This document shows positions 1 to 55,326 of a stretch of 64,000 nucleotides of DNA, piece after piece. This stretch comes from Dehalococcoidales bacterium. Lineage in GTDB: Bacteria; Chloroflexota; Dehalococcoidia; Dehalococcoidales; UBA2162. The notes beneath the pieces are model-generated. The model had not been told where the DNA came from. It saw nothing but the letters and a program-made list of their open reading frames with translations, and ran no database searches. The position numbers and the translations under genes are program-made. The number at the start of each line of letters is the position of its first letter. Position 1 is the stretch's first letter. The stretch is taken from NCBI GenBank assembly GCA_034416335.1, contig DAOULV010000003.1, positions 45,617-109,616 on the forward strand, given 5' to 3'.

Positions 1-1246
1 TCAGCAGCACTTCTTCTATCTTCATACCTTTCATCCTGGTAATAACCAGCTTTACGTTCCTGAACCTCAGCTGTTCGCCCTGTTTCGGTATACGACCGAG
101 GAGACTCAGGAGAAGACCGGCGATAGTCTCATACTCTTCGCTTTCCGGCAACTCCAGCCCCATCTCTGCGTTTATCTCCTCTATGCGCATACCTCCGTCC
201 ACCTGAAAGGTATAGGAGTTAATTCTCTCGTATTCCTTCTCGGCTGCCGCAAGCTCGTCTCCCACGGGACCGACTATTTCCTCTACCAGACGGCTGAGAC
301 TGACGATACCGGCGGTCCCGCCGAACTCGTCTATTACAACCGCGACCCGGTAGTTATTATCTCTCATCTCGGCAAAAAGCTCGTTTATCAGTTTGGTCTC
401 CGGAGTAAAATATGCGGGTCGTACCAGGTCGTCGATTACCGATTCCCTGGTTATTTCACCCCTGGCCAGCCCCATCAGTATATCCTTGATGGACAGTATC
501 CCCACAACGTTGTCCATATTCTCCTGGAATACGGGGAAACGTGATATCGGTGATTCCGCATATAAAGCAAGAAAATCCGAGACATGGGAACCTTCCTCGA
601 TGGCTATTACCTCGGGACGGGGTATCAGCACCTCACGCACCGGCCTGTCTCCGAAATCGAAAACCTTTGCCAGCATCTTGGCCTCGTTTTCTTCAACCGT
701 CCCTTCCTTATGGCCGACGGAAATCATGTTACGTATTTCGTCGGCAGTGGCGAGCGACCTCGGGACCGCTTCGCCTCCGGACATCCTGGCAAGACCGGAA
801 GCTATCCAGCTTAATACAAACACGAACGGTGATAGAATCCAGGAGATAATTTCCAGGGGGCGTACGGCAAGCAGGGACATCCTCTCATTGTGATTAGCCG
901 CAACCGTTTTCGGAGTGGTCTCGGCGAATATCAGCAGAATTATGGTTATTGCAGCCGTGGCAATAAGTATCCCGTACTCGGGCCAGCGGTTAATCGCCAG
1001 CGCAGTTGCCAGAGCTGCAGCCGCCGTATTAACGAACGTGTTGCCTAGCAATACAGTGGAAAGAAACTTTTCGGGCCGCTCTATCATCCTGGCAACCCGT
1101 CCGGCTCCTCTAACCTTGGTACTTACCAGATGCTCGAGTCTGATTTTCTGCAGAGATATGAAAGCCGTTTCCGAGCTGGAGAAGAAAGCGGAAAAGATTA
1201 TACAGGCAATAAGAAGCACCAGATACAGTGCTTCGGTGCTAGACAA
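1..1246 (-). CDS. CNNM/HlyC/CorC-family transporter (DUF21 membrane domain + CBS pair + CorC_HlyC domain); C-terminus runs off the window
   Basis: My own minus-strand translation. It is absent from the ORF track because it has a TTG start at 1246..1244 (GGTGA upstream) and no stop inside the window. Motifs: FSAFFSSSETAF...LLGNTFVN...FAETTPK (DUF21); VREVLIPRPEV...ISRFPVF...VVGILSIKDIL (CBS); VVIDEFGGTAGIVSLSRLVEEIVG...YTFQVDGGMRIEEIN (CorC_HlyC). Confidence 0.85.
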   Translation of the reverse strand, partial: MSSTEALYLVLLIACIIFSAFFSSSETAFISLQKIRLEHLVSTKVRGAGRVARMIERPEKFLSTVLLGNTFVNTAAAALATALAINRWPEYGILIATAAITIILLIFAETTPKTVAANHNERMSLLAVRPLEIISWILSPFVFVLSWIASGLARMSGGEAVPRSLATADEIRNMISVGHKEGTVEENEAKMLAKVFDFGDRPVREVLIPRPEVIAIEEGSHVSDFLALYAESPISRFPVFQENMDNVVGILSIKDILMGLARGEITRESVIDDLVRPAYFTPETKLINELFAEMRDNNYRVAVVIDEFGGTAGIVSLSRLVEEIVGPVGDELAAAEKEYERINSYTFQVDGGMRIEEINAEMGLELPESEEYETIAGLLLSLLGRIPKQGEQLRFRNVKLVITRMKGMKIEEVLL

Positions 1247-1420
1247 ATACCATCACCTGCCTATCGAATTGTTCATTAGTACAAATAGTAATCCACATAA
1301 TATCATCGGGTGAAAATATTGTCAAAAACATTTTAATTAATCTGTCTGGACAAAATGTAAATATATAATCTAGAATACTGCTCTGAATATATAGCGAATA
1401 GAACAGTGAGGAGGTCGGTG

Positions 1421-27462: not shown

Positions 27463-29223
27463 ATGGCGGACAAAATTTACAAATGTCTGAATCCTGTCGG
27501 TATTCACGAACCGGTGGAATTTTCACCACTGTCGCCGCGCCTTGATAAGCTCGACGGCAAAACAATATTCGTGAGTATCGGCGCGGGTGGTGAACAGGAT
27601 ATCACCATTCCCCTGCCCAAGAAACTGCAGGAGAAGTACCCGCAGGTAAACTGGATAATCCAGGGAGCCGGACCCCACCTGACGAAAGCAGGAAGTATTT
27701 CTCTAACCGATGAGCAGGTGGAAAGCGGAGAGATAGACGCTCTGATACGCGGAGTAATCTGGTGACACGGAGCTATATGGGAGCAGTTGCCCCACTTAGC
27801 GACAATTGAAAAACGCGGTATTCCCAGCGTCTTTATTATCTATGAAGACCAGGACGAATGTTTCGAGCAGGCATGCAGACTCAACGGTATTCCCCATCTA
27901 AGACGTATTAACTGCTCACGCGTCATCCCCGGACCAGAGGACGTCGACAGGTGGATTGACGACCTGCTCGATGCTCTTGTCAGACCCCTCACTGCCGAGG
28001 AAAAAGCCGGCGGTAAATGGGAAGAACCTGACAAGAGGATACTTTTTGAAGGTACCCTTGAAGAGGCAAACGAATTCTATCAGCAGACAATGATAGTACC
28101 CACACTCCAGAATGCTCCTTTCTCTATTTATACCGACGGTATGCCGATAGTAATTCCCACGGAAGAACGGGTCGCAAAGATGCTTACCGGTACCAGCCAC
28201 AAACCTGATGAGATTATCACCTATCAAGCCGACCACAGACTCGGCGACAGAATAAACCAGATGGGCAGCTCCGGCGTTAAAGGCGAACCGGTCTACTTTA
28301 TGCCGATGAGACGGAAAGCAACGGTAGAGAAGGTTGCCACGATCGGCGTCATGGCAGGATGCAAGCCGGAACATATGCCGATTCTGCTGACGATGGCTGA
28401 ATCCGGCGGCGGCTGCAGCGACGGCCGCGGCGGCGGATCTTTTTGTATCTCCGGTCCTATCGCCAGAGAGATTGGTATGAATTTCGATGTAAACGTACTC
28501 GGTCCCGGCAATCCCTCCAACCGTTGCCTGGGACGCGCTACCGATCTTATGTGGCGTAATTTCGGACAGCAGATTCCCAGCGTAAATAACTGTGGTGTTT
28601 ATGGCGGTGGTATTACAAACGTTTTCCCTGAGAATGCCGACGCACTACCACCGGGATGGCAGGGTCTGAATGAAGAATACGACTTTAAAAAAGATGAGAG
28701 TATATTAATACCGGCTGGTGCTGGTGGCGGCGGTACGCACTTCTCCCCTGGAGGATACCGCGCATTCCAGAAGAGCGGTCACGGAGGAATAGCCAGGCGT
28801 CTGGGTGTAAAAGGCGTTCCAGGTCCTAAGAACTGGCTTGAATACGAAGTACCGGGCTGGTGGAAATGCGGAGAAGGTGGCATATCAATTATTATGCTTC
28901 CTGAAATGGCTCAGCACCTGTACGAAGCTGGTTTTAAATCCAAGGATGATGTATATGAATGGATTTATAAGCAGAGTTTCACGACGGTCAGGGAATACCG
29001 GACTCACTCCTGGCCCGATATGCGCACCAACGCCTGGAAGGGTATTGAAAAGACATCCGGTAAACACTGGTTGGAACTTGACGAGGATTATATGGTTCCC
29101 GCCTGTGAAGACCCCTTCAGCAACCTGATTATCGTAACGGGCGGCGGAGAAGAAATGGCTCTTATCGGTGGCGGTCGCATGGCAGGAATGGACGCAGCCT
29201 GGCATATCGACCCATGGCGGTAA
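27463..29223 (+). CDS. candidate selenoprotein: UGSC-family-like N-terminal domain fused through an in-frame TGA (27763..27765, residue 101) to an uncharacterised domain of about 480 aa
   Basis: Track ORFs 27463..27765 and 27787..29223 are in the same frame with nothing but the TGA between them. The read-through sequence is IDALIRGVIW-U-HGAIWEQLPHLATIEKRGIPSVFIIYED, a strand-U-helix-strand pattern. A hairpin follows the TGA. GAGGAG RBS before 27463. Confidence 0.6.
27772..27800 (+). promoter_or_regulatory. candidate bacterial SECIS hairpin
   Basis: GCTA-TA-TGGG-AGCAGTTGC-CCCA-CT-TAGC: two 4-bp helices around a 2x2 internal loop, with an apical loop containing GT that starts 16 nt after the TGA. 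Confidence 0.4.
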
Positions 29224-40748: not shown

Positions 40749-40829
40749 TCTTTACCCTACCAGTCAGGCTGTCAGTATACTTCAGGAATGTCAAACAAAG
40801 CAAAATTTTTCAGGAAATCTTGTACTTTA

Positions 40830-41819
40830 TTATGCCGGAACCGGCATACTTGAGTCCGTTCACCTGCTTCCACCACCTGCCGTGCAGCCGAAGCAGTGAT
40901 TTCCAAACCTTATTTTTCTGGTTAGCAGTGCCGACGAATCGAAGTTGTATATTCCGGTCGAATTGCCGGAGACTTTCATTCCGAGCGCCTGGTTGAAGTC
41001 ACAATCATAAAGGCTTCCGTCATAACCCACACTGATCAGGTAGCGGCAGACGAGACCTTTGACAGACTCAGGGCTAAAACTATTTTCCAGCTTATGGGTG
41101 TATTCTCTCAGATTATCTCTCTTTTTCAACAGAGAACGGAACCGGCCAATTGGCATATTGGTCACAGCTAAAAGTGAATTAAACACTAGACCATATCGGC
41201 TTGATAGTATTTTCCTGAATTGATTCTCTAAATGGTCTTTCTCATCTGGAGATATCGGACCATCACAGTTATGGACAAGATTCAAGACGAGTCCGGAATC
41301 AGGATGTCCGTAACCAAGTGAATTAAGACGTCGTATAGCTTTGATGCTTTCCCGAAACACATCTTTACCTCGTACCTGGTCGGTTATTCTTGCATTATAA
41401 TGAGGTAATGACGCCAGTATTTTTACATTGTTTTCCGCGAAGAAGTCTGGTAAGTATTCTTTGCTGCCCCGAGAGCCTGGATCTCCATCGGCAGTAACTG
41501 TTAGATTATGGCGAACAGTTACCTGTTTTCCCATTTTTCCGGCTTCCATAACCAGGTATTCGAAATCGGGGTGCAACTCCGGTGCTCCACCCGTAATGTC
41601 CAGGTTCTTACAACTATCCAGGTCGCTGATAACCTTCAGACATTGCTCCATAGTATCTCGACTCATTTGTTCGGTTCGGCCCGGAGACGCTTCAACGTGA
41701 CAGTGGGCACAGGCTTGATTACAGCGCATGGTAATATTAATCCACAGTGTTTGGATAGCAACCGGGCTTAGTTCCAGGCCATTATTGTCCAGAGTATTAA
41801 TAAAATTATTGTTTGCCAT
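40830..41819 (-). CDS. arsS: ArsS-type radical SAM/Cys-rich-domain (seleno)protein; in-frame TGA at 40860..40862 (residue 320), followed by 9 more codons to a TAA
   Basis: CNQACAHCH radical-SAM cluster motif. C-terminal sequence: HCFGCTAGGGSR-TGA-TDSSMPVPA-TAA. The family is annotated in RefSeq as a '(seleno)protein' whose C-terminal Cys can be Sec. A perfect hairpin lies 11 nt after the TGA. The start could be 41840 or 41819. Confidence 0.75.
40831..40848 (-). promoter_or_regulatory. candidate SECIS hairpin (could double as a terminator stem)
   Basis: The mRNA reads TATGCCGG-TT-CCGGCATA, a perfect palindrome giving a stem of about 7 bp with a GGUUCC apex. It starts exactly 11 nt after the UGA. 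Confidence 0.5.
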
Positions 41820-43164
41820 CTTCTGAGATTGCCAGAGCATGTTTCATTATTCCGGCGTAATCGTTATTTACCGGTACCGACTTTCTCTGCCACCGGCGAA
41901 GGTCATCTTCGGTATCGATGTCATCAAGAATCCTTAAGTTATGGACTCTGAGTCCTAATTCACCTGCTGAGGACACGGTCTGGTCATATACAGCATCGGT
42001 ACTCCAGGCAACGCCGTCAAAAAGACTCGGGTATAGTTCATTCATTCCAATGAGATAATATCCGCCATCGAAACTGGGCCCGATAACCAGATCAGCCTCC
42101 TTCAGGGCGCTAAAAGCCTCTTCAATGTCATCTACCGTAAGGTCGGGTACGTCCGTTGCGGTAATAATTACTTTCTTGAATCCTTTTTCAAACTGGTCAC
42201 GGAAGATTGTCTTGAGTTTTTCCCCCAGCACACCATTAACCTGCGGCTTGAAACGAAAACTCCGTCCGGCCCAACGCCGCACTCTCTTTCCGGCACTCCT
42301 CGGAGTATAGTATATGTTCCTGACGATATCCGTCGGAAGGTTTTCAACTTCTTTGAACAGGTGCTCGATACAGTCACGATAAAATTGTGTCGCCATCTCT
42401 TTACCAATCGTTCTTGCCAGACGCGTTTTGACCTCTCCCTCCGATGGATAACGCAGAAATATTACGAGACTCCTCTCGAATTTAAGGCTGTTACCGTAAT
42501 ATTTTTCAGCGAGTCTCCAGGGAGATACACCAAGCATATACTGTATGGTGTAATATACATTCTTTATCTGCTGCCGTATGATACCGTTCTTTACAAATCG
42601 ACGTGCTGAGGTTACAACCGAGACCGGGAAACGGTATACCCTTGTCTGTTTACGAGCTGCACGAATAAGCTCAAAGTCTTCAAACAGCATCCAGTTTGGG
42701 AATCCTCCCAGGTCATCAAAAAGAGATTTTCGGATTACTATGCCCTGGTCGCCAAATCGGAACAGTCCCATATCGAAGTTAGCCAGAAAACTCAATAGCC
42801 GCAGAAACCAGTGCTTCGTATCAAAAACAATCCCGAAATTCCCAATTTTTACTTCATCCTTGCTAAAGATTTCAGACAAGTAATTGAAGGCATCTCGAGG
42901 TAAAATCGTATCGGCATGAAGAAAGACGATAATCTCGCCGGCTGCAGTCGCAGCTCCAAGATTACACTGTAATCCTCTACATGGTTCAGTATGTAAAACC
43001 GTAGCTCCTGCTGTTTCCGCTATCACAGCAGTGTCATCGGAACTGCCGCCGTCGACAACGATGATTTCCGCATTTGACTGTTCAGAAACGATACTTGATA
43101 TGCAGGCCCCGATCGTTTCTGCTTCATTCAGCGTTGGGATTATCACCGAAAATGAATGTTTCAT
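41806..43164 (-). CDS. fusion of two rSAM/selenodomain-associated (arsenosugar-cluster) transferases: N-terminal GT2 (TIGR04283-like) + C-terminal DUF2064/CofC-like (TIGR04282-like)
   Basis: N-terminus: FSVIIPTLNEAETIGACISS...VVDGGSSDDT...FLHADT. C-terminus: SLVIFLRYPSEGEVKTRLA...VIITATDVPDLT...GPSFDGGYYLIG. Confidence 0.7.
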   Translation of the reverse strand: MKHSFSVIIPTLNEAETIGACISSIVSEQSNAEIIVVDGGSSDDTAVIAETAGATVLHTEPCRGLQCNLGAATAAGEIIVFLHADTILPRDAFNYLSEIFSKDEVKIGNFGIVFDTKHWFLRLLSFLANFDMGLFRFGDQGIVIRKSLFDDLGGFPNWMLFEDFELIRAARKQTRVYRFPVSVVTSARRFVKNGIIRQQIKNVYYTIQYMLGVSPWRLAEKYYGNSLKFERSLVIFLRYPSEGEVKTRLARTIGKEMATQFYRDCIEHLFKEVENLPTDIVRNIYYTPRSAGKRVRRWAGRSFRFKPQVNGVLGEKLKTIFRDQFEKGFKKVIITATDVPDLTVDDIEEAFSALKEADLVIGPSFDGGYYLIGMNELYPSLFDGVAWSTDAVYDQTVSSAGELGLRVHNLRILDDIDTEDDLRRWQRKSVPVNNDYAGIMKHALAISEDGKQ

Positions 43165-43384: not shown

Positions 43385-44014
43385 ATGAAAGTTAAAAAAT
43401 TCGGGTTGTTTATAGTTTTTTCAGCAGTATTAGCCTTGTCAGTAACATCCTGTACTTCTCAGAATACGGAACAAGAAGCCGTATCGGGACAAGAGGGCAC
43501 TAACAAGGCAGTCTTAGAACCTCAACCAGATGAAATTTGGAATGACATTATTCCAGAACCGGGTACAGAAACTATTTATAATATTCCTCTATCACTTGAC
43601 AACACGCAGCAATTTATTGATTGGTTCTTTTCGATAGACCTGAATGATGATGAGAAAGAACTGAAGAACGAAGCCCTCGGTTCGCTGGTTGCACCCTGTT
43701 GTGACGAATATCCGATGAACGAGTGCTGATGCGAGTGCAATTTGGCCCGCAGTGTGTGGGGCCTGGCAACCTACCTTGTCAAAGAGAATTACGATGTTGA
43801 ACAGATTCAAGAGGCTTCTTCTCAATGGCTGCATTTTATTCGACCTGACTATTATGTAGCAAAAGCTCTTAAGGAAGAGCGACTTAATCCTGAACAATTT
43901 GGATTTACTTTAGATAGTTCATGTTTCTCGGGTCGCTGTGACACCCCTTTTTATACCAGAACATCCACTTCCTACCTTGGAGGTTGTGGCGGAATGGAAG
44001 AACTCATCCAATAA
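43385..44014 (+). CDS. candidate seleno-lipoprotein with a C-U-C-x-C motif; in-frame TGA at 43727..43729 (residue 115)
   Basis: Track ORFs 43376..43729 and 43742..44014 share a frame and are separated only by the TGA. Lipobox: LALSVTS-C. Read-through sequence: APCCDEYPMNEC-U-CECNLARSVWGL. A hairpin lies 14 nt after the TGA. Confidence 0.55.
43744..43763 (+). promoter_or_regulatory. candidate SECIS hairpin
   Basis: GGCCC-GCAGTGTGTG-GGGCC: 5 G:C pairs and a GU-rich 10-nt loop. The loop begins 19 nt after the UGA. Confidence 0.4.
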
Positions 44015-45126: not shown

Positions 45127-46041
45127 ATGAAAAAAGAAAATAGAAATTTATCGCGACGCCAGTTTCTGAAAAAATCCGCTTTTTCACTGGGGTTAATATC
45201 GGTTGCCGCGTCGTTACCTTCATTCCTGATGAAAAGCGTAAAAGCAAAAGAGGAACCTCCTGAAGAAAGTGATGACACCACAAAAATCAGGGAATGGTGT
45301 ATGGTAATAGACCTCAGAAAGTGTGAGGGTTGCGTGACAATAGACTCTCCACCACAATGCACCCAGGCATGCATCACGGGGCATTATGTGCCTAAGGGGC
45401 AACAGTGGATACAGGTTTTTCAGGTCGATGCCCCGAAAGGTAGTTATTTTTTGCCGGTACTCTGTAATCAGTGTGAAAACGCGCCATGCGTAAATGTTTG
45501 TCCGGTCGGAGCTACTTATCATGATAAAGATGGAGTAGTACTTATCGACCACAAGAGATGTATCGGCTGCCGGATGTGCATGGCTGCCTGTCCATATCAC
45601 AGAAGGTTCTTTAACTGGGGCGAACCGGACCTACCTCCGGATGCAGCATTTGCCGAGTATTCACCCATATACCCGGTACCGGCTGTGAAAGGTACCGTGA
45701 TAAAATGCATGTTCTGCGCCCATTTCCTTCGAAATGGCGTTTTGCCTTATTGTGTCTCGGGTTGTCCGATGAAAGCTCTTTATGTCGGTGATTTGAATGA
45801 GGACATCGCTTCAAACGGCCAGGAAGTAGTCCAGCTATCTCGTTTCATCTCGGAAAACGATGGTTTCCGCTTGAAAGAGGAATTAGGCACCCAGCCGAGA
45901 GTGTGGTATTTACCCGGACACGGACAGGCATTTCAGCGAACGGCTGACGACCCACGTCCTTTCATTCCGACGGAATGGCCCTGGGAAGGCGAAAGTTATG
46001 ATAGGAAAATCGGTGTCTGGCCGTGGGGAGAGAAGGAATAG
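45127..46041 (+). CDS. Tat-exported 4Fe-4S ferredoxin subunit of the DmsB/PsrB/NrfC (CISM beta) type
   Basis: Twin-arginine signal LSRRQFLKKSAF. Cluster motifs: CEGC...C, CNQCENAPCVNVCP, CIGCRMCMAACP, CMFC...C...CP. Confidence 0.8.
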   Translation: MKKENRNLSRRQFLKKSAFSLGLISVAASLPSFLMKSVKAKEEPPEESDDTTKIREWCMVIDLRKCEGCVTIDSPPQCTQACITGHYVPKGQQWIQVFQVDAPKGSYFLPVLCNQCENAPCVNVCPVGATYHDKDGVVLIDHKRCIGCRMCMAACPYHRRFFNWGEPDLPPDAAFAEYSPIYPVPAVKGTVIKCMFCAHFLRNGVLPYCVSGCPMKALYVGDLNEDIASNGQEVVQLSRFISENDGFRLKEELGTQPRVWYLPGHGQAFQRTADDPRPFIPTEWPWEGESYDRKIGVWPWGEKE

Positions 46042-47387
46042 TTCGAGTGAGAGTCCAAGAAACATATAGAGAACGATTGGAACGTGTTGTTCTGGCTCCG
46101 ATATCCAGCTCAAGTCGCAATTATAAACTCTTCCTGTTATTTCTTGTCGCTGTAGTATGTTGGGGCCTGTATGCACTGATAGTACAGCTCAATTTTGGCC
46201 TGATGGTCACCGGAATGCGTGATGACGTTTTCTGGGGTTTATATCTGGTTAACTTCGTTTTTTTCATTGGTATCAGTCATGCCGGGACGTTGATATCGGC
46301 GATTTTGCGGGTTACTCATGCAGGATGGAGAACACCGGTAACCCGTATGGCCGAAATGATTACGGTAGTAGCCATTTCGATAGGTGCTTTGATGCCGATA
46401 ATCGATATCGGTCGACCTGACAGAGTCTGGCACATGCTGGCATTCGGTCGCTTTCAGTCGCCGCTGATGTGGGATATATTCTCCATAACTTCTTACCTTA
46501 CCGGAAGCTTAATTTACTTCTATCTTCCGCTTATTCCCGATTTTGCCAGGATGAGGGACCGGAGTGATAGATATTCGACGTCATTCAGGCAAAAAGTATA
46601 TTCAGTGCTATCCATGGGGTGGAAAGATACACCCGAACAACGCCGGCGACTTGAAAAAGGTATCAATATAATGGCGATTATCATTATACCGATAGCTGTT
46701 TCCGTACATACCGTTGTTGCCTTCGTGTTTTCCATGAACCTGAGACCCGGCTGGGACAGTACGATATTCGGTATTTATTTCGTTATCGGAGCAATTTTCT
46801 CCGGTATTGCAACTATCATTATAGTTATGGCTATCTTCAGGAAATTTTTCCACTTCGAGGAATATATCACTGAAAAACACTTTAAATATCTTGGCTATTT
46901 ACTTCTGACATCTCTGGTATTTTATCTGTACCTGACCATAAGTGAATATCTGACCATCGGGTATAAGCTACAGGTTGAAGAAAAGCATCTGCTCGAGATA
47001 CTTGTTTTCGGCCAGAATGCTCCCTGGTTCTGGACATTCCTTATAGGAGGAATGATAATCCCTGCTGTACTGATTGTCTTTCAAAAGCTGCCTACCGTCC
47101 GCAGGCTGGTAATAGCTGCAGTGCTGATAAATATCGGTATGTGGGTTAAAAGATTCATAATCGTTATTCCGACCCTCCAGGTACCGCTTATGCCGTACGA
47201 TTTCGGCAGCTACACGCCGACATGGGTGGAATGGTCCATAACCGCGGCTGCATTCGCCGCCTTTATCCTCATAATGGCAATCGGCGGTAAAATACTGCCC
47301 ATGATTTCAATGTGGGAGGTTGCGGAAGAAGCTGAAACAGAAACACAAGCGCTCCCTGATATAGCCGCAGAGAGGAATGTAAGATAA
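46023..47387 (+). CDS. NrfD/PsrC-type polytopic quinone-interacting membrane subunit
   Basis: About 10 hydrophobic helices with NrfD-like spacing. The start is uncertain: GTG at 46023 overlaps the upstream gene, and GTG at 46047 is an alternative. Confidence 0.7.
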   Translation: MGREGIVRVRVQETYRERLERVVLAPISSSSRNYKLFLLFLVAVVCWGLYALIVQLNFGLMVTGMRDDVFWGLYLVNFVFFIGISHAGTLISAILRVTHAGWRTPVTRMAEMITVVAISIGALMPIIDIGRPDRVWHMLAFGRFQSPLMWDIFSITSYLTGSLIYFYLPLIPDFARMRDRSDRYSTSFRQKVYSVLSMGWKDTPEQRRRLEKGINIMAIIIIPIAVSVHTVVAFVFSMNLRPGWDSTIFGIYFVIGAIFSGIATIIIVMAIFRKFFHFEEYITEKHFKYLGYLLLTSLVFYLYLTISEYLTIGYKLQVEEKHLLEILVFGQNAPWFWTFLIGGMIIPAVLIVFQKLPTVRRLVIAAVLINIGMWVKRFIIVIPTLQVPLMPYDFGSYTPTWVEWSITAAAFAAFILIMAIGGKILPMISMWEVAEEAETETQALPDIAAERNVR

Positions 47388-48466
47388 TGAGAATTGCGCT
47401 GCGCGTATTATTAGCGGTTTTCTTCATTACGATAATAACTTTGCTGATATCATCTTCAACTGTAACAGCCCAGGAGGAACCTCCCGATCCATATAACGGA
47501 TTGATTAATCCATTCCAGTGGGATGATCCATCGGCACAGACTGCCGGTAAAGCGATTTATACTCAAAAATGTCAGGGATGCCACGGGATAAAGGGTAACA
47601 ATTTTTCCGATTCTGATTTTAGCTCGCCGGATTACCATGTTCTTCTGGAAACAAGACCAGATTATTATTACTGGGAATTAAGTGAAGGAATAAAAGCAAA
47701 AGGTATGCCGGGCTATGCCTCTATTCTTTCGGAAGAAGAACGATGGCAGGTGCTGACATATATATGGTCGCTGGAATCAGTCACCTTTCAGGAAACTGAA
47801 GGGCCGACGACCATTGAGGATGGTTTACTGAGACTCCATCTACCGGAAGACGGTACTGCCGGACAACCGATAACAATAAGCGCCACTCTCCTCGAAGATC
47901 AGAGAGACCCGGTTCAGGGCGAGCAGATTGAGTTTTATATCCGGGCTGATTTCTTCGCCAGCGGACTGATGGAAATCGGGAAAGTTTTCACGGATGAAAG
48001 AGGTATTGCTGAATTCAGTTATGTACCTAGACAATCCGGGGAGATAGACGTTATCGCCCGTTTTCAGAATCTGGAATCGAGGAAGACAATTACATTGGCT
48101 GCAGCAGGAGAGAGTTTTTACCATTCGGAAGTAGGAATAAAAGTCCCCGTACTTGGTGACGAAGTGTTAATCGGACCTCCCGAGCGTCTACAACTCGGGG
48201 CAGCCGGAGAAGCTCCACTGCCGGTGCTTCGTCTTCCCACAGGACACCTTGCCTGGTTGGCTCCTCTTGTATTCGCGGCAATGTGTATCTGGATAGTATA
48301 TTCGTACGTAGTATTTCAAATATTCAAGATTTCGGATACAGGAGTCGATGAGGAAATCAACACAAAGCGATTCTCGAGAACTTTACTGGTAGTGATATCT
48401 GTTCTGGGGTTTTTACTAATGGTTATGCTGTTACTCAGTCCGGAATCGAATCCTCAACTGTTCTAA
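47387..48466 (+). CDS. membrane-anchored mono-haem c-type cytochrome with an Ig-like middle domain
   Basis: CQGCHG haem-binding motif with a distal MPGY Met ligand region, an N-terminal signal/TM and C-terminal TM helices. ATGA-type overlap with the upstream gene. Confidence 0.7.
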   Translation: MRIALRVLLAVFFITIITLLISSSTVTAQEEPPDPYNGLINPFQWDDPSAQTAGKAIYTQKCQGCHGIKGNNFSDSDFSSPDYHVLLETRPDYYYWELSEGIKAKGMPGYASILSEEERWQVLTYIWSLESVTFQETEGPTTIEDGLLRLHLPEDGTAGQPITISATLLEDQRDPVQGEQIEFYIRADFFASGLMEIGKVFTDERGIAEFSYVPRQSGEIDVIARFQNLESRKTITLAAAGESFYHSEVGIKVPVLGDEVLIGPPERLQLGAAGEAPLPVLRLPTGHLAWLAPLVFAAMCIWIVYSYVVFQIFKISDTGVDEEINTKRFSRTLLVVISVLGFLLMVMLLLSPESNPQLF

Positions 48467-49187: not shown

Positions 49188-49208
49188 TATTAGTTTGAGG
49201 TATTGACA

Positions 49209-49652
49209 ATGAGACTTTCAACAAAAGGGCGTTATGGCTCAAGAGCACTCCTGGAGATAGCTCTCCATGACAGAAATACGCCTGTCCAGCTTAAAGATAT
49301 ATCTGAAAACCAGCAAATTCCACTTCCCTATCTGGAGCAATTGATAAGACCTCTCGTTGCCGGCGGTTATGTTCGCAGTTCAACCGGTCCCAAAGGAGGA
49401 GTAACTCTTAATAAACATCCGTCCGATATTAAAATGCTGGATATTATCCAGTTGTACGAAGGTTCTGTTGCACTTGTCCCCTGTGTTGACAATCCTGATC
49501 TATGTGAACGTTCGGCAACGTGTGTCACCAGGGACCTCTGGAGTGAACTCAAAGACTCGATGAATGATGTTCTAAGTTCAAAAACTCTCCAGGACCTTAT
49601 AGAGCAGCAAAAAGAAAAAGATGAAGCTGAAGAAGCTATGTATTATATCTAG
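49209..49652 (+). CDS. Rrf2 family transcriptional regulator (paralog of 35219..35668)
   Basis: MRLSTKGRYGSRALLEIA...PLPYLEQLIRPLVAGGYVRSSTGPKGG...CVDNPDLCERSATCVTRDLW. Confidence 0.9.
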   Translation: MRLSTKGRYGSRALLEIALHDRNTPVQLKDISENQQIPLPYLEQLIRPLVAGGYVRSSTGPKGGVTLNKHPSDIKMLDIIQLYEGSVALVPCVDNPDLCERSATCVTRDLWSELKDSMNDVLSSKTLQDLIEQQKEKDEAEEAMYYI

Positions 49653-49702
49653 ACCACGCACGTATAACACTCACGCGATGTTTCAAAGGAGTAATAAAAT
49701 TA

Positions 49703-50713
49703 ATGTCTGACAGATATTCCAGACAGATAATTTTCACAGGAATCGGTGCCGAAGGACAGGCAAAGCTGAATGAGAGCAGTGCCGTAATAATCGGTTGTGG
49801 CGCACTCGGTACAGTTATTGCTACTGCTCTGGTACGAGCCGGTGTCGGGAAAATAAAAATCGTGGACAGGGATTTCATCGAGTATCACAACCTGCAGCGT
49901 CAGGTCATATTCGATGAGGAAGATATCAGAGAAGGTCTGCCTAAAGCAGTTGCCGCTGAACGATATCTCAGGAAAGTAAACTCAGAAATAGAAATCGAAG
50001 GAATTGTCAGTGACGTCAACTATTCCAATATTGAAAAACTGGTGGAAGGTGCCGATATTATCCTGGACGGACTCGATAATATGGAAACCCGATTGCTTAT
50101 CAATGACGTTTCTCTAAAACTGAATATCCCCTGGATATACGGCGGGGCTATCTCTTCATACGGGATGACGATGAATATTATCCCCGGTGAAACAGCCTGT
50201 TTTCGCTGTTTTCATACCGACCCGGCAGGTATCGGTATCGCAATGACCTGCGATACAGCCGGAGTAATCGGTACGGCGCCGTTTGTTATCGGATCGCTTC
50301 AGGCAACCGAAGCTATAAAAATACTTACAGGATCGGAAGAAACAAGTCATGAGTTAATTGCTGTCGATGTCTGGAAAACTGACTTTCATCGGTTCAGGAT
50401 CAGCCGTCGTGATGACTGCCCGGCCTGTAACGGCGAATATGAGTTTCTGAATGCTAAATTCGGAGTCAGGACTACTTCGCTTTGCGGTCAAAACTCGGTG
50501 CAGATACTCAATCCGAATGCCGGGAAAGTATCCCTGAATAAACTGGCAGATAACCTTAAACCACTCGGACAAGTCAGCTTTAACGACTATATGCTTCGTT
50601 TTAATATCAACGGTAATGAAATGGTTGTATTCCCTGACGGACGGGCGATAGTTAAAAATACCGATGACGAATCTTATGCCAGAGGTCTATACGCGAAATT
50701 TGTAGGAATGTAG
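49703..50713 (+). CDS. ThiF/MoeB/HesA-family E1-like adenylyltransferase with an extra C-terminal domain
   Basis: RYSRQIIF...VIIGCGALGT...VDRDFIEYHNLQRQ...CFRC...CPAC zinc motif. Confidence 0.85.
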   Translation: MSDRYSRQIIFTGIGAEGQAKLNESSAVIIGCGALGTVIATALVRAGVGKIKIVDRDFIEYHNLQRQVIFDEEDIREGLPKAVAAERYLRKVNSEIEIEGIVSDVNYSNIEKLVEGADIILDGLDNMETRLLINDVSLKLNIPWIYGGAISSYGMTMNIIPGETACFRCFHTDPAGIGIAMTCDTAGVIGTAPFVIGSLQATEAIKILTGSEETSHELIAVDVWKTDFHRFRISRRDDCPACNGEYEFLNAKFGVRTTSLCGQNSVQILNPNAGKVSLNKLADNLKPLGQVSFNDYMLRFNINGNEMVVFPDGRAIVKNTDDESYARGLYAKFVGM

Positions 50714-50723
50714 GCGGATGTAA

Positions 50724-51905
50724 ATGATATATCTCGATAATGCAGCAACAACGTGGCCTAAGCCGGAGAGCGTGTACAAGGCTATGGACATTTTCCTCAG
50801 GAACAGCGGCGGTAACCCGGGGCGTGGAGGGCACTCTATGGCTGAGGCTGCAAGTAAAGTCGTAGATGATACACGATTACTGTTATCTCGGTTCATCAAT
50901 GCAACCGAACCGAAGAGGGTAATATTTACGTTTAATTGCACGGATTCACTGAATACCGGCATCAAGGGCATACTCAAACCCGGCGACCACGTGATAACGA
51001 GCTCCATCGAGCATAATTCGGTAATCCGTCCGCTCGAAAAACTGCGTCATCAGGGAATAGAAGTTACCCGGATAAACCCAAATCCGGAGTATGGCTATGT
51101 TTTGCCCGGCGATATCGAAAAAACTATTAAAAACAATACCAGATTGATTATTATGACACATGCCTCAAATGTAAACGGCGTTGTCCAGCCTGCCGGAGAA
51201 TACGGTCGGATTGCCCGAAAACACAATCTTATATTCATGCTGGATGCCGCTCAAACCGCAGGCAAATTCCAGCTGGATGTCCAGAATGACAACATTGACA
51301 TACTTGCTTTTTCAGGGCACAAAGGTCTGTTTGGCCCACCCGGAACCGGCGGATTGTATATAGGCGAGAGAGTAGATTTGGACACGCTTCGTGAAGGAGG
51401 GACCGGTTCACAGTCCGAATCGGAAGAACAACCGTCTTTATTGCCCGGAAAATACGAGAGTGGTACTCATAACACGGTAGGGATTGCCGGGCTGGGAGAG
51501 GGGCTGAGATATATATCACAGGAAGGTATCGACAGGATACTCAAACATGAACTGCTGTTAACCGAAAAGTTAATAGACGGTTTATCCGAAATTTCCGGGA
51601 TTACGATATATGCAGCTCCAGATATATCGATACAATGTCCAGTGATTTCTTTCACGGTGGACGGCGTTGAACCCGGAGAAGTGGGCACAATACTTGACCA
51701 GGCTTTCGATATTAAAGCCAGAACCGGTCTGCATTGTGCTCCGGCAGCGCATAAAACACTCGGGACTCTTCCGCGGGGAACGATTCGTCTGAGTCCCGGT
51801 TACTTTAACACCATTGAAGAAATCGATGTAACACTTGAAGCTATAGAGCGAATAGCTTATACGGGAGGATTGATAACAACTGCCGGTGCAAAGCCGGTGA
51901 AGTAA
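50724..51905 (+). CDS. class V aminotransferase-fold cysteine desulfurase family protein
   Basis: [13 protein letters not shown]...[11 protein letters not shown]...[16 protein letters not shown] (PLP lysine)...ARTGLHCAP (active-site Cys loop). Confidence 0.85.
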
Positions 51906-51918
51906 AAGGAGGGTGGAT

Positions 51919-52923
51919 ATGGTCAAGAATAAAACCAGATTTGAAAAAATAGCTTACAGGACACTGGAATTACCGGTGCTAACCCGGGGTATAGCAAAAG
52001 ACTCTACGGAACTAATCGGTAATACCCCGCTGGTCAGGTTGAATCGTGTAGCTGAAGGAAAACCGGCAGATGTCGTCGTGAAACTGGAATCCTTCAATCC
52101 GCTTGGCAGTGTCAAGGACAGGATTGGAGTAGCGATGGTCGTTGACGCCGAAGAAAAGGGATTGATTAAAAAGGGTACGGTTATTGTCGAACCTACCAGC
52201 GGAAATACCGGTATAGCACTGGCATTTGTCTGTGCTGCCAGGGGCTACAAACTGATCCTTACCATGCCGGACACGATGTCCATGGAACGCCGGCAGCTCC
52301 TGTCCGTGCTTGGAGCCGAATTGGTATTGACACCAGGTGTCGAAGGAATGCCGGGAGCCGTAAAAGTGGCGGAAAAGCTGGTGGCTGAAAATAGTAATTA
52401 TGTTGTTTTGCAGCAATTCCAGAACCAGGCAAATCCTGAAATTCACAGCCTGACGACCGCCGATGAAATATGGCGTGATACGGAAGGACAGGTGGATATA
52501 CTTGTTTCCGGAGTAGGAACAGGCGGAACGATTACAGGAGTAGCCAGAGAACTGAAAAAGAGGAAGCCAGGATTTAAAGCGATAGCTGTCGAGCCGGTCA
52601 CTTCTCCCGTCCTTTCCGGAGGATCACCCGGTTCGCATAAAATCCAGGGAATCGGTGCTGGATTTATCCCGGATGTACTTCAGACTGATCTGATAGATGA
52701 AATAGTACAGGTAAGTAACGATGACGCAGGAGACATTGCCAGAAGACTGGCTCGTGAAGAGGGGATACTGGCAGGAATATCTTCAGGAGCAGCCGTGTGG
52801 GCAGCGCTTGAAGTTGCCGGAAGACCTGAGAATAAAGGAAAGCTGATAGTAGCAGTTCTACCCGATACGGGTGAGCGTTATCTGTCGACCTGGCTTTTCC
52901 AGGATCTTTATAAAGAGGAGTAG
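51919..52923 (+). CDS. cysK: cysteine synthase (CysK/CysM family, PLP-dependent)
   Basis: [10 protein letters not shown]...[14 protein letters not shown]...[12 protein letters not shown]...[10 protein letters not shown]...SSGAA. The ATG at 51919 follows AGGAGGG. I cannot separate CysK from CysM here. Confidence 0.85.
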
Positions 52924-52984
52924 TTAGCTTACAGATGGGTGAATGACATTTTCCCTGAATCGCCAGAAAGCTGGAAAACAAATA

Positions 52985-53710
52985 ATGTTAGAAATCATAA
53001 AAGAAGATATACAAACTATATTTAAAAAAGACCCTGCGGCAAGAAGTGTTATCGAGGTATTGTTTTGTTACCCCGGACTGCATGCCTTGAGGTTTCATCG
53101 CGTGTCTTCATTCCTCTGGCGACATAAATTACGCTTTATTGCGCGCCTTTTATCTCATATTGCCCGCTTCTTAACGGCGATTGAAATTCATCCCGGCGCG
53201 GTTATTGGCAGACGATTTTTTATCGATCACGGTTCCGGAGTGGTTATCGGAGAAACAGCAGAGGTCGGCAATGATGTACTGATGTACCAGGGAGTCGTCC
53301 TTGGAGGTACTTCCCTGAAAAAAGAAAAACGTCATCCGACTATAGGAAATAATGTCGTGATAGGCACGGGGGCTATAGTGCTGGGAGCCATTACCGTCGG
53401 TGATGACGCCAGGATAGGTGCCGGTTCGGTTGTAGTAAAATCCGTGCCACCCGGTACCACAGTCGTTGGTGTACCCGGAAAAGTGGTGGAAGACCAGCAT
53501 AAACAGATTATCGACCTTGAACATGGAAATCTTCCGGATCCCGTGGCACAGGCTATACGGATTGTATTAAATCAGCAGGAAAGATTTTCTGACAGGTTAA
53601 AGCGACTCGAAAGATCGAATGGACTGGAAATCTTCGAAGACGCATTTCAGGAAGAAAGTGACGCCAGGAAGGAATTGATCAGGGAATTCTCCGACGGTGG
53701 TGGAATCTAG
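52985..53710 (+). CDS. cysE: serine O-acetyltransferase
   Basis: [47 protein letters not shown], and hexapeptide repeats. The start is uncertain (52943 or 52985). Confidence 0.85.
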
Positions 53711-53733
53711 AGAGGAAAGGTTATCAAACCCGG

Positions 53734-54018
53734 ATGAGTGTAAAAATAAACATTCCGTCATATCTTCAATATTTTACTGATAACGCCGAGGTTGTTGAAG
53801 TAAACGGCAGTTCGGTAAAAGAATGTCTGAGTATACTTTCAAAACGTTTCCCCGAACTGAAGAAGCTGCTTTTTAGTTCGGATGATGAACTGAGTAATAA
53901 TCCCTTAAATTACGTGGAAATATTTCTAAATGGAAAATCCGTTATGCACGATGAGATAACCGAAAAAGTGAAAGACGGCGACGAACTGGAGCTAACTTAC
54001 GTAGTTCTCGGAGGATAA
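53734..54018 (+). CDS. MoaD/ThiS-family sulfur-carrier protein ending in Gly-Gly
   Basis: 94 aa, ending ...ELELTYVVLGG directly before the stop. Confidence 0.75.
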   Translation: MSVKINIPSYLQYFTDNAEVVEVNGSSVKECLSILSKRFPELKKLLFSSDDELSNNPLNYVEIFLNGKSVMHDEITEKVKDGDELELTYVVLGG

Positions 54019-54126
54019 AAACAAGGAGTGGGTATATGAAGGTGGTGACATACTTATGGTTGATGTGGTGCCCGAAAGGGCTACTCCGTACATTAAATCA
54101 ATAATTAAAAATATGGAGGAAAACAC

Positions 54127-55326
54127 ATGGCTAAAAGTATAGCTGAAATAAACGAGAGAATTAAAAAAGGTGAAGCTGTAGTTGTAACTGCCGAAGAAAT
54201 CATCGATATCGTCGCGGAAAAAGGTATCGAGAAGACTGCAAAAGAAGTCGATGTTGTGACAACAGGGACATTCGGACCGATGTGCTCATCGGGAGCCTTC
54301 CTCAATATCGGTCACGGATTGCCGAGAATTAAACTCGGCGGGGGTAAAGTATACTTCAACGATGTGCCGGCATATGCCGGACTTGCGGCGGTGGATGTAT
54401 TTATTGGAGCAACCGCCGTTCCGGACGACGATCCCAGAAACAGGAACTATCCCGGAGATTTTGACTATGGCGGGGGTCACGTAATAGAAGACCTGGTAGC
54501 AGGAAAGGATATCCGCGTGACCGCAACGGCTTACGGGACGGACTGCTACCCCGGCAAGAGCCTCGATACTACTATAAACCTTGAAAGTATCAACGAAGCT
54601 GTCCTGTTCGATATCAGAAACGGTTACCAGAATTATAACGTTGCGGTAAACCTTTCCGATAAAAGAATACATACATATATGGGGGTCCTCAAACCTGAAC
54701 TGGGTAATGCTCATTATTGCAGCGCGGCTCAGCTTTCACCTCTGCTGAACGATCCCCATTACAAGGCTTTCGGCATAGGTACTAAAATATTCCTCGGAGG
54801 AGGTATCGGTTACGTCGCCTGGCAAGGTACGCAGCATAATCCGGGCGTTCCCCGCAGCGAAAACGGCGTTCCGAAACGCCCGGCCGGGACTTTATCCGTT
54901 ATCGGTGACCTGAAACAGATGAATCCTGAATGGCTGCGAGGGACAAGCATGTTAGGATACGGCACTACTATCACCGTCGGAATCGGCTTGCCGATTCCGG
55001 TACTGTCAGAAGAAGTCGTGAAGTATGCTTCGGTGAAAGATTCCGAAATATATGCTGCGATAGTAGACTATTCCGAGTCATACCCTAACCGGAAACCGGA
55101 CGTACTCGGTGAAGTCAACTACGAGGAACTGAAGAGCGGAACTATCGAAGTCCAGGGTAAAAAGGTTCCCACGACTTCATTATCAAGCTATTTTAAAGCG
55201 CAGCAGATAGCCGGAACTCTGAAAGAGTGGATACAGAAGGGAGATTTCCTGTTGACCGAACCGGTTGCATATCTTCCCGGTGCAGAATCCGGTATCGTTT
55301 TCAAGAATCTTCCCCAAAAAGTATAA
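54127..55326 (+). CDS. COG1900/DUF39 homocysteine-biosynthesis protein
   Basis: KSIAEINERIKKGEAVVVTAEE...VDVVTTGTFGPMCSSGAF...NYNVAVN...IFLGGGIGYVAWQGTQH match the COG1900a family, as I recall it from methanogen MA1821 homologs. Confidence 0.75.
   Translation: MAKSIAEINERIKKGEAVVVTAEEIIDIVAEKGIEKTAKEVDVVTTGTFGPMCSSGAFLNIGHGLPRIKLGGGKVYFNDVPAYAGLAAVDVFIGATAVPDDDPRNRNYPGDFDYGGGHVIEDLVAGKDIRVTATAYGTDCYPGKSLDTTINLESINEAVLFDIRNGYQNYNVAVNLSDKRIHTYMGVLKPELGNAHYCSAAQLSPLLNDPHYKAFGIGTKIFLGGGIGYVAWQGTQHNPGVPRSENGVPKRPAGTLSVIGDLKQMNPEWLRGTSMLGYGTTITVGIGLPIPVLSEEVVKYASVKDSEIYAAIVDYSESYPNRKPDVLGEVNYEELKSGTIEVQGKKVPTTSLSSYFKAQQIAGTLKEWIQKGDFLLTEPVAYLPGAESGIVFKNLPQKV

Follow-up and report, generated by a model that had tools for sequence, protein, structure and literature searches.

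The radical SAM gene arsS is the Sec form of the ArsS/TIGR04167 family, whose selenoproteins have long been known and among which it is nothing out of the ordinary; the standard call of the gene loses 10 residues, namely Sec and a nine-residue tail. At the level of sequence the locus comprises a member of this family with its Sec codon and a SECIS hairpin, laid out as an operon with a gene in which the two partner transferases of the family are fused; it lies within the 64-kb window (the whole stretch of DNA analyzed). We consider it very probable that the Sec-containing ArsS, produced by SECIS-directed recoding of UGA, acts on a trivalent arsenical and that the fused transferases process the resulting intermediate.

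The arsS gene and its in-frame UGA

As called, arsS specifies a protein which carries the sequence CNQACAHCH and terminates ...NHCFGCTAGGGSR, the C-terminal end of the ORF being HCFGCTAGGGSR-TGA. The initial annotation had described nine open codons and a TAA behind this TGA, which we confirmed base for base (Table 1), and had recognized the protein as ArsS. The latter is borne out by its match to NCBIfam TIGR04167 (379.2 bits against a curated equivalog cutoff of 300; profile positions 5–300 of 303), the alignment extending to residue 328, beyond Sec. Pfam motifs PF04055 (E = 8e-14) and PF12345 (E = 7e-46) were also identified. The protein possesses the CX3CX2C motif and, toward its C-terminus, a DUF3641 domain whose Cys are conserved; the G-x-x-[C/U] position of its tail, which the family fills with Cys or Sec, is here the TGA codon. 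Residues C67, C265, C280, C316 and C319 are invariant in the alignments.

The nearest database protein shows 83% identity, and the best named relatives derive from Chloroflexota and Dehalococcoidales MAGs. Since close relatives are annotated at 318–320 aa, the second ATG is favored as the start. The overlap of arsS with the upstream transferase gene (35 nt, or 14 nt if translation begins at ATG 41819) suggests that the two genes form one operon with coupled translation.

Table 1. Features of the arsS locus (positions in the window)
Feature	Position	Strand	Remarks
arsS, full-length selenoprotein gene	40830..41840	minus	336 codons + TAA (translation)
arsS alternative start	ATG at 41819	minus	329 codons + TAA
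arsS ORF as called	41840..40860	minus	326 aa
Radical SAM cluster motif C40-x3-C44-x2-C47 (CNQACAHC)	41700..41723	minus	invariant in alignments
C-terminal Cys/Sec motif H315-C-F-G-C319-TAGGGSR-U327	40860..40898	minus	TGA 40862-40860 = Sec codon
Post-TGA tail	40859-40833	minus	9 sense codons, TDSSMPVPA
Bacterial SECIS hairpin UAUGCCG-GUUC-CGGCAUA	40831..40848	minus	7-bp stem, 4-nt loop
Tandem stops TAA TAA	40827..40832	minus	first 40832-40830, second 40829-40827; end the 9-residue post-Sec tail; first overlaps 3' end of hairpin
Fused transferase gene	41806..43164	minus	452 aa (translation); upstream of arsS
GT2 / TIGR04283 domain	residues 6-222 (43149..42499)	minus	233.2 bits vs cutoff 182; profile 2-221/221
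DUF2064 / TIGR04282 (CofC-like) domain	residues 233-422 (42468..41899)	minus	197.7 bits vs cutoff 134; profile 1-189/189

Among the matches listed, the homologous loci which bear the motif have Cys (GSS-C-GG) at the codon corresponding to the arsS TGA in 126 of 149 cases and TGA in the other 23. An earlier census of 161 loci had returned 12 with TGA at the Sec codon, again among the matches listed. The census drew upon scans of genome and metagenome contigs, the relatives in the matches listed all being 52% identical or less, while loci of close relatives were retrieved individually, apart from these scans. In the Cys-type loci the Cys is followed by a short tail, and in the alignment of the C-termini the homologs do not end before the position of the TGA. 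The UGA is therefore in frame and opposite a Cys of the homologs, and the coding sequence is conserved to either side of it; the proposal that this is the Sec form, truncated by 10 residues in the standard call, is upheld.

The protein is deposited publicly (P0001, NCBI and Logan) in the truncated form of 326 aa, without Sec and the nine-residue tail. This misannotation is shared by 117 of the 120 closest database proteins, which terminate exactly at the Sec codon; the remaining three run on past it, reading GSS-C-GG. TIGR04167 has for years been catalogued as a selenoprotein family with the motif GxxU (PMC13188914, PMC9312934). With its “rSAM_SeCys” member from Geobacter sulfurreducens (AAR34688.1, GxxU) the protein shares the HMM family, CX3CX2C motif and DUF3641 domain, as well as the position of Sec in G-x-x-U, the short tail and the SECIS element just downstream. 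The tail here is U-TDSSMPVPA whereas more distant members have U/C-GG-x-x-x, which is no difference of kind.

Two further genes in the window have a TGA opposite a conserved Cys (27763–27765 and 43727–43729), which argues indirectly, and from sequence, that the host genome decodes Sec and would possess the necessary machinery. No selA, selB, selD or tRNA-Sec gene was found within the 64-kb window. These two Sec-for-Cys genes, a by-product of the analysis, are apparently uncatalogued, one of them belonging to a large family which is almost always mis-called, and they may matter more than the arsS finding. The Cys-rich Sec protein beside the arsS cluster adjoins arsS in no other locus examined, and was for this reason not counted as part of the arsS system. 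A third in-frame TGA pair (393–893 plus 915–1313, plus strand) was rejected because a real gene of more than 417 aa, which runs past the start of the window, is encoded on the minus strand opposite it.

The hairpin downstream of the UGA

The palindrome TATGCCGG-TT-CCGGCATA (18 nt), which the initial annotation had placed 11 nt behind the TGA, does begin at exactly this distance. The same 11-nt spacing is reported for the minimal SECIS element of E. coli fdhF. The final two bases of the hairpin are the opening two bases of the first TAA, and since the element lies within the final 30 nt of the ORF, the RNA largely sets the sequence of the tail peptide; in these tails the conserved (M/I/L)-P-V corresponds to the 5' arm and loop of the hairpin.

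Taken alone the hairpin is modestly unusual (MFE -11.5 kcal/mol, z = -2.1; 7 of 200 shuffled sequences fold equally well); it stands above chance because it is kept at the same position in relatives. In 11 of these 65 of 66 cells are paired (54/54 in the other count), with compensatory (double) changes at three of the six pairs, and controls in which the partner was slid gave 18–53% pairing versus 98–100% in the true register. In all 10 close relatives examined the TGA has a hairpin behind it at an unchanged offset; the loop consensus is CGUGUC, unlike the GGUUCC/GUUC of the window. Both the 11-nt spacing and the loop sequence are retained among the relatives while spacer and stem sequences vary, with compensation.

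The hairpin satisfies every criterion published for bacterial SECIS elements (PMC13188914), namely a loop of 3–9 nt (here four, GUUC), a stem of 4–16 bp (seven), G in the first two loop positions, a distance of 16–37 nt from the UGA (18 nt to the loop) and an MFE of -7.5 kcal/mol or lower. With the bSECISearch-type model, of which E. coli fdhF is the prototype, it has in common an in-CDS stem-loop 3' of the UGA and a small apical loop beginning G-U. It differs in being short and simple, without a bulged U, and in ending at the stop codon instead of being placed deep within an ORF. Searches against Rfam (whole window at the gathering threshold; 40750–40950 at E up to 10) returned no SECIS or other relevant family, as might be expected with short bacterial SECIS elements.

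One might argue that the TGA simply stops translation, that ArsS is C-terminally shortened and that the hairpin is a terminator or mRNA-stabilizing stem. Gene callers do take the TGA as a stop, the hairpin is situated at the extreme end of the second gene of the operon where it overlaps the next stops, a nine-codon open frame is not improbable by chance, and a z-score of -2.1 is all that fold energy by itself provides. But an ordinary stop here would remove a Cys which is found in all 126 Cys-type loci among the matches listed, and the other genes in the window require that UGA be read as Sec. The stem is followed by AUAAUAAAGUACAAG rather than a T-tract, nor was it picked up by the terminator scan. 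Moreover, the spacing from the TGA and the loop are conserved while spacer and stem change with compensation. We therefore hold termination at the TGA to be highly improbable; the evidence supports a predicted bacterial SECIS element over a terminator.

The fused transferases and the gene neighborhood

The gene upstream of arsS had been described as a 452-aa fusion of GT2 and DUF2064/CofC-like domains, and this description stands: both TIGR04283 and TIGR04282 exceed their cutoffs over nearly the full length of the profiles, and the gene overlaps arsS. The corresponding Pfam motifs are PF00535 and PF09837. NCBI names the two families as enzymes of the arsenosugar pathway, while JGI labels such fusions “transferase 2/transferase 1.” The existence of triple fusions (GT2-DUF2064-rSAM-DUF3641; P0150 and P0200) indicates a functional link between the transferases and ArsS.

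The initial annotation had seen in the fusion, and in the lack of an arsM-like gene, signs of an unusual product. Neither could be sustained. GT2-DUF2064 fusions are common, occurring in more than 100 protein clusters with identities down to 41%, and the fusion joins the two canonical partners of the ArsS family; it is no mark of an unusual product. A tblastn search with 12 ArsM sequences did confirm that arsM is missing from the 64-kb window, and the Pfam/NCBIfam annotation of the window ORFs scanned contained no methyltransferase domain. However, of the 126 Cys-type loci among the matches listed only 18 have arsM within about 5 kb of arsS, so that its absence near arsS is not informative. 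Since even Cys-type loci seldom show this linkage, ArsM, the supplier of DMAs(III), is a requirement of the pathway and not a family-defining feature of ArsS.

Among the matches listed, arsM was near none of 19 Sec-type loci, and nor was the TIGR04169 peroxidase-like partner. Compared with the 14% background, 0/19 for arsM gives a binomial P of ~0.05, with shared ancestry and truncated contigs not yet taken into account, and a difference between Sec- and Cys-type loci in arsM linkage is not convincing. Cyanobacterial and many Bacteroidota loci have AsSugar-ArsM (NF038099), often with TIGR04169, beside arsS, whereas neither is present in the window. Additional GT2/GT21 and MptA_B/GT87-type membrane glycosyltransferases occur in the clusters of some Dehalococcoidia relatives, and DedA/UptA-like membrane proteins recur beside arsS.

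The fusion is also present in a cultured organism, Dehalogenimonas lykanthroporepellens BL-DC-9 (P0214, locus L173), which shares the two-gene architecture, domain order, gene overlap, TGA at the same codon and type of hairpin. Its fusion protein is 45% identical to the one described here; its spacer behind the UGA contains one codon more, and its loop reads CGUGUC versus GUUC.

Proposed function and significance

We envisage that at the UGA (40862–40860) the ribosome would encounter the hairpin 11 nt downstream, which would recruit SelB and Sec-tRNA(Sec). Sec would enter at residue 327, followed by nine further residues and termination at UAA UAA. As in the characterized Cys-type ArsS, the [4Fe-4S] cluster held by C40, C44 and C47 would cleave SAM, and the 5'-deoxyadenosyl radical would add to a trivalent arsenical, yielding 5'-deoxy-5'-dimethylarsinoyl-adenosine. 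Sec is situated on a flexible C-terminal tail beside C316 and C319, where its most likely contribution is to a selenolate/thiolate site which holds the As(III) substrate. The adenosyl or ribosyl intermediate would then presumably be processed further by the fused transferases.

For the substrate, as for the roles of Sec and of the transferases, we infer function from relatives and analogs. ArsS adenosylates DMAs(III) to DDMAA (PMC13598754), a catalysis known for Cys-type enzymes only. The characterized enzyme from Synechocystis sp. PCC 6803, which carries out this reaction, belongs to the same family and has the same predicted chemistry, with Cys where the present protein has Sec; an arsenic substrate is thus assigned here, by analogy, from a cyanobacterial Cys-type enzyme which is only distantly related. 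The arsinothricin radical SAM enzyme ArsL provides a functional analogy for HCxGC...U in its C-terminal RCCLKC motif, which binds As(III) via three Cys. Both enzymes would form a C-As bond with As(III) held by a C-terminal Cys cluster. ArsL, however, is of a different family, cleaves SAM in a non-canonical manner, transfers a 3-amino-3-carboxypropyl group and has no reported Sec form.

The role of Sec could also be a different one. A PDB sequence search returned no ArsS structure, and the nearest solved folds identified by Foldseek are SPASM/twitch radical SAM enzymes (SkfB, SuiB, BlsE and EpeE; E 1e-9 to 1e-11), so that the C-terminal Cys/Sec could ligate an auxiliary Fe-S cluster. In that case Sec327, with C265, C280, C316 and C319, would ligate or gate an auxiliary [4Fe-4S] of a twitch/SPASM-like C-terminal domain and would not bind arsenic; the six Cys/Sec positions which are conserved in addition to those of the radical SAM motif would suffice for a cluster. 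But TM-scores are only about 0.5, the match being driven by the radical SAM core, and an AF2 model of a homolog of the Cys form (pLDDT 89) puts the corresponding Cys at the start of a disordered C-terminal tail, a low-confidence and probably mobile setting in which one would not usually find a cluster ligand. Furthermore, ArsL holds As(III) through C-terminal Cys, and Sec-for-Cys exchanges recur in the arsenic enzymes ArsM and arsenate reductase (Table 1 of PMC13188914). A cluster ligand is accordingly a possible but rather doubtful role for Sec. What the enzyme acts upon may be questioned as well: the Sec-type ArsS of an anaerobic Chloroflexota-like lineage might make no dimethylated arsenosugar. 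Its substrate would instead be, for example, As(III) in inorganic or monomethyl form, or some other metalloid, and the fused transferases would build another glycoconjugate, possibly a glycolipid of the membrane. The Sec clade has no characterized member, and the extra membrane glycosyltransferases, the recurrent DedA/UptA-like proteins and the distribution of arsM (none in the window, and present near 0/19 Sec-type as against 18/126 Cys-type loci, among the matches listed) would fit such a scheme. Against this, arsM-arsS linkage is not obligatory, the 0/19 count is of the borderline significance given above before shared ancestry and truncated contigs are allowed for, the score is well over the TIGR04167 equivalog cutoff with all catalytic and C-terminal motifs retained, and the transferases belong to the very families which NCBI assigns to the arsenosugar pathway. 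We regard this alternative as unlikely. A product other than an arsenosugar is possible, but nothing in the analysis points there.

In its most far-reaching form this idea would make the Dehalococcoidia-like Sec-ArsS and fused transferases a self-contained, ArsM-independent module with a substrate other than DMAs(III) or a non-classical product. Such a product may be, for example, a membrane glycoconjugate of an adenosyl- or ribosyl-arsenical (or other metalloid) and not one of the classical dimethylarsinoyl-ribosides. We give this little credence; were it true, this large clade would be misnamed by the family term “arsenosugar biosynthesis.” On the preferred reading, a Sec-type ArsS acting upon a trivalent arsenical, the locus adds little to biology, as the catalogs already contain the Sec form of TIGR04167, both partner transferases and also the fusion of the two. 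It has modest value in pointing to the Sec-type ArsS and both transferases, which are biochemically uncharacterized, and D. lykanthroporepellens is an available cultured organism with identical architecture in which such biochemical work could be undertaken.

Selenocysteine codon and hairpin of arsS

The radical SAM gene product matches NCBIfam TIGR04167 with 379 bits (cutoff 300), the profile alignment extending to residue 328, past the TGA at 327, and contains the Pfam domains Radical_SAM and DUF3641. TIGR04167 has for years been listed as a selenoprotein family with the motif GxxU (PMC13188914, PMC9312934). The initial annotation had described the gene as a Sec-type ArsS called too short; its sequence statements on arsS, the TGA, the tail, the palindrome and the upstream gene all proved correct. 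The finding is real: this is a Sec-type ArsS shortened in annotation, as is borne out by the homologs, the close clade, the hairpin covariation and other Sec genes in the window.

Features of the window
Feature	Position	Strand	Remarks
arsS ORF as called	41840..40860	minus	contains CNQACAHCH, ends NHCFGCTAGGGSR
In-frame TGA of arsS	40862-40860	minus	codon 327
Post-TGA tail of arsS	stops 40832-40827	minus	nine sense codons (TDSSMPVPA), then TAA TAA
Perfect palindrome	40848..40831	minus	TATGCCGG-TT-CCGGCATA, begins 11 nt past TGA
Transferase fusion gene, 452 aa	43164..41806	minus	upstream of radical SAM gene, overlapping its start
Predicted selenoprotein gene, 586 aa	27463..29223, TGA 27763-27765	plus	two same-frame ORFs (100 aa + 478 aa), read ...ALIRGVIW-U-HGAIWEQ...
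Predicted Cys-rich selenoprotein gene, 212 aa	43376..44014, TGA 43727-43729	plus	two same-frame ORFs; divergent neighbour of transferase gene
Sulfur-carrier gene cluster	49203..55326	plus	Rrf2 regulator, ThiF-like E1, class V aminotransferase (cysteine desulfurase-like), PALP enzyme, hexapeptide acetyltransferase, ThiS-like carrier, HcyBio homocysteine-biosynthesis enzyme
Redox genes	45127..48466	plus	Fer4_11 iron-sulfur protein, NrfD-type membrane protein, c-type cytochrome
Terminase-domain ORF, 465 aa	8846..10243	minus	RNaseH-like domain of a phage terminase large subunit (Terminase_6C, E = 6e-9)
Rejected ORF-TGA-ORF pair	393..1313	plus	same frame; spurious

The position of the TGA is the protein end (GGGSx) in 117 of the 120 best database homologs, while three run past it, reading GSS-C-GG. 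Aligning the C-terminus with its homologs, the check proposed initially, places Cys (126) or TGA (23) opposite this codon in the 149 listed loci in which the motif was found; an earlier count over 161 listed loci gave 126 Cys, 12 TGA and 23 without a detectable motif. An alternative genetic code is ruled out, since the aligned residue is Cys, neither Trp nor Gly, and TGA is normally a stop, ending 12 of the 55 ORFs of the window. Sec decoding is also indicated elsewhere, by two further window genes with TGA opposite a conserved Cys. Homologs, close clade, covariation and these genes thus agree that the arsS TGA is a selenocysteine codon; the remaining weakness of this reading is that no selA, selB, selD or tRNA-Sec gene was found within the 64-kb window.

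The palindrome does begin exactly 11 nt after the TGA, as first noted, and its last two bases are the first two of the first TAA. The hairpin (7-bp stem, 4-nt loop GUUC with G first, UGA-to-loop distance 18 nt, MFE -11.5 kcal/mol) fits the published model of bacterial SECIS elements (PMC13188914) on all four counts. In ten close relatives (53-83% identity) a TGA is likewise present, and a hairpin of 6-7 bp comes after it each time, with loop consensus CGUGUC and a spacer of 11 nt in nine and 14 nt in Dehalogenimonas lykanthroporepellens. Pairing is seen in 54/54 cells of a 9-sequence alignment and in 65/66 of an 11-sequence alignment, where the sole exception is a gap-placement artefact, and three of the six pairs show compensatory double changes. 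Sliding the partners by 1-3 columns lowers pairing to 18-53%, and none of 500 shuffles reached the observed score. The initial annotation had raised the possibility that the hairpin acts only as a terminator; no T-tract follows it and a terminator scan did not report it. The tail peptide is presumably for the most part a by-product of this RNA, its conserved (M/I/L)-P-V being encoded by the 5' arm and loop.

Further predicted selenoprotein genes and neighbouring features

A full-length homolog of the 586-aa protein (P0247, 66% identity) has Cys opposite its Sec. The gene calls of 119 of the 120 best homologs begin just past the UGA, and about 100 conserved N-terminal residues are therefore lost from them. 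The few named homologs are "hypothetical proteins" of Chloroflexota/Dehalococcoidales; there was no Pfam or NCBIfam match, and a search with an AF2 model of moderate confidence (pLDDT 64) found nothing significant among PDB folds. Downstream of the UGA lies a strong hairpin (-16.1 kcal/mol, z = -3.65), and the motif is absent from the table of a 2026 selenoproteome review. This may be a selenoprotein family that has escaped cataloguing and is mis-called systematically.

The 212-aa protein reads APCCD...EC-U-CECNL (APCCDEYPMNEC-U-CECNLARSVWGL...GGCGGM) behind a signal peptide or lipoprotein-like leader, and all 12 aligned homologs carry Cys at the U position (CCCxCNL). It has no Pfam or NCBIfam match and may bind metals or metalloids. 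Its adjacency to the arsS cluster is probably incidental, since none of the other fetched loci has such a gene beside arsS. Opposite the pair at 393..1313, on the minus strand, runs a genuine gene (>417 aa) which extends past the start of the window.

No molybdopterin catalytic subunit gene adjoins the redox genes. The terminase-domain ORF, surrounded by housekeeping genes, may be a prophage remnant.

Transferase fusion and the product of the cluster

The 452-aa GT2 and DUF2064 fusion described initially was recovered with both profiles at full length, TIGR04283 (233 bits, cutoff 182) at residues 6-222 and TIGR04282 (198 bits, cutoff 134) at residues 233-422. Such fusions do occur elsewhere, as had been asked; the architecture is widespread (>100 protein clusters of about 450 aa, identity down to 41%) and already named, as "rSAM/selenodomain-associated transferase 2/transferase 1" by JGI. 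The reverse domain order is also found. Joint action of the three modules is confirmed by the existence of triple GT2-DUF2064-rSAM-DUF3641 fusions (database proteins P0150, 777 aa, and P0200, 705 aa). In our sample the five nearest relatives all have the GT2-DUF2064 fusion, and the more distant Sec-type loci have two separate transferase genes. As in the window, the fusion gene of the cultured D. lykanthroporepellens BL-DC-9 overlaps an arsS of the Sec type, which carries the same hairpin.

We grouped the genes neighbouring arsS in 145 listed loci into clusters, the largest of which were then annotated. Within about 5 kb of arsS, the dedicated arsenosugar ArsM (NF038099) is present in 18 of the 126 Cys-type listed loci and in none of the 19 Sec-type ones (0/19 against a 14% background, P ~0.05 by our own estimate before correction for relatedness and truncated contigs), and the peroxidase-like partner TIGR04169 is near arsS in 14 Cys-type and no Sec-type loci. 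Neither occurs in the 64-kb window. The initial annotation was right about the absence of arsM, but not in taking it as a sign of an unusual product: linkage is an exception even in groups having it, so the absence says little. A non-canonical product of the Sec-type cluster is an unsupported possibility. The Sec clade has no characterised enzyme, and some Dehalococcoidia arsS loci also encode membrane glycosyltransferases of the GT21 and GT87 types.

In three Sec-type Dehalococcoidia loci (L170, L171 and L172; about 3.6-8 kb in locus coordinates) the DUF2064 gene is apart from GT2. The divergent operon that it adjoins encodes a GT2 together with a GT2/GT21-type enzyme and a membrane glycosyltransferase of the MptA_B/GT87 type. 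Beside arsS, a membrane protein of the DedA/UptA-like kind recurs in 18 loci. Together these neighbours hint at a membrane-linked glycoconjugate.

Proposed role of Sec327

What the data show is the arrangement of the operon, the Sec codon with its SECIS, and the family to which the enzyme belongs; for the chemistry the characterised ArsS (PMC13598754) serves as our model. By analogy, the C40/C44/C47 cluster would cleave SAM, and the 5'-deoxyadenosyl radical would then be added onto a trivalent arsenical. The Cys equivalent to Sec327 begins a disordered C-terminal tail in the AF2 model (pLDDT 89) of a homolog of the Cys form. The other radical SAM enzyme that forms a C-As bond, ArsL, binds As(III) through a C-terminal three-Cys motif, and Sec-for-Cys swaps are recurrent in ArsM and arsenate reductase (PMC13188914). 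For these reasons we favour a mobile As(III)-binding site that would comprise Sec327, C316 and C319. The fold similarity of ArsS to SPASM/twitch enzymes would fit the alternative, that Sec327 is instead a ligand of an auxiliary Fe-S cluster. With the Sec form of the family and the transferase fusion already known, what is new here is one more Sec-type ArsS.
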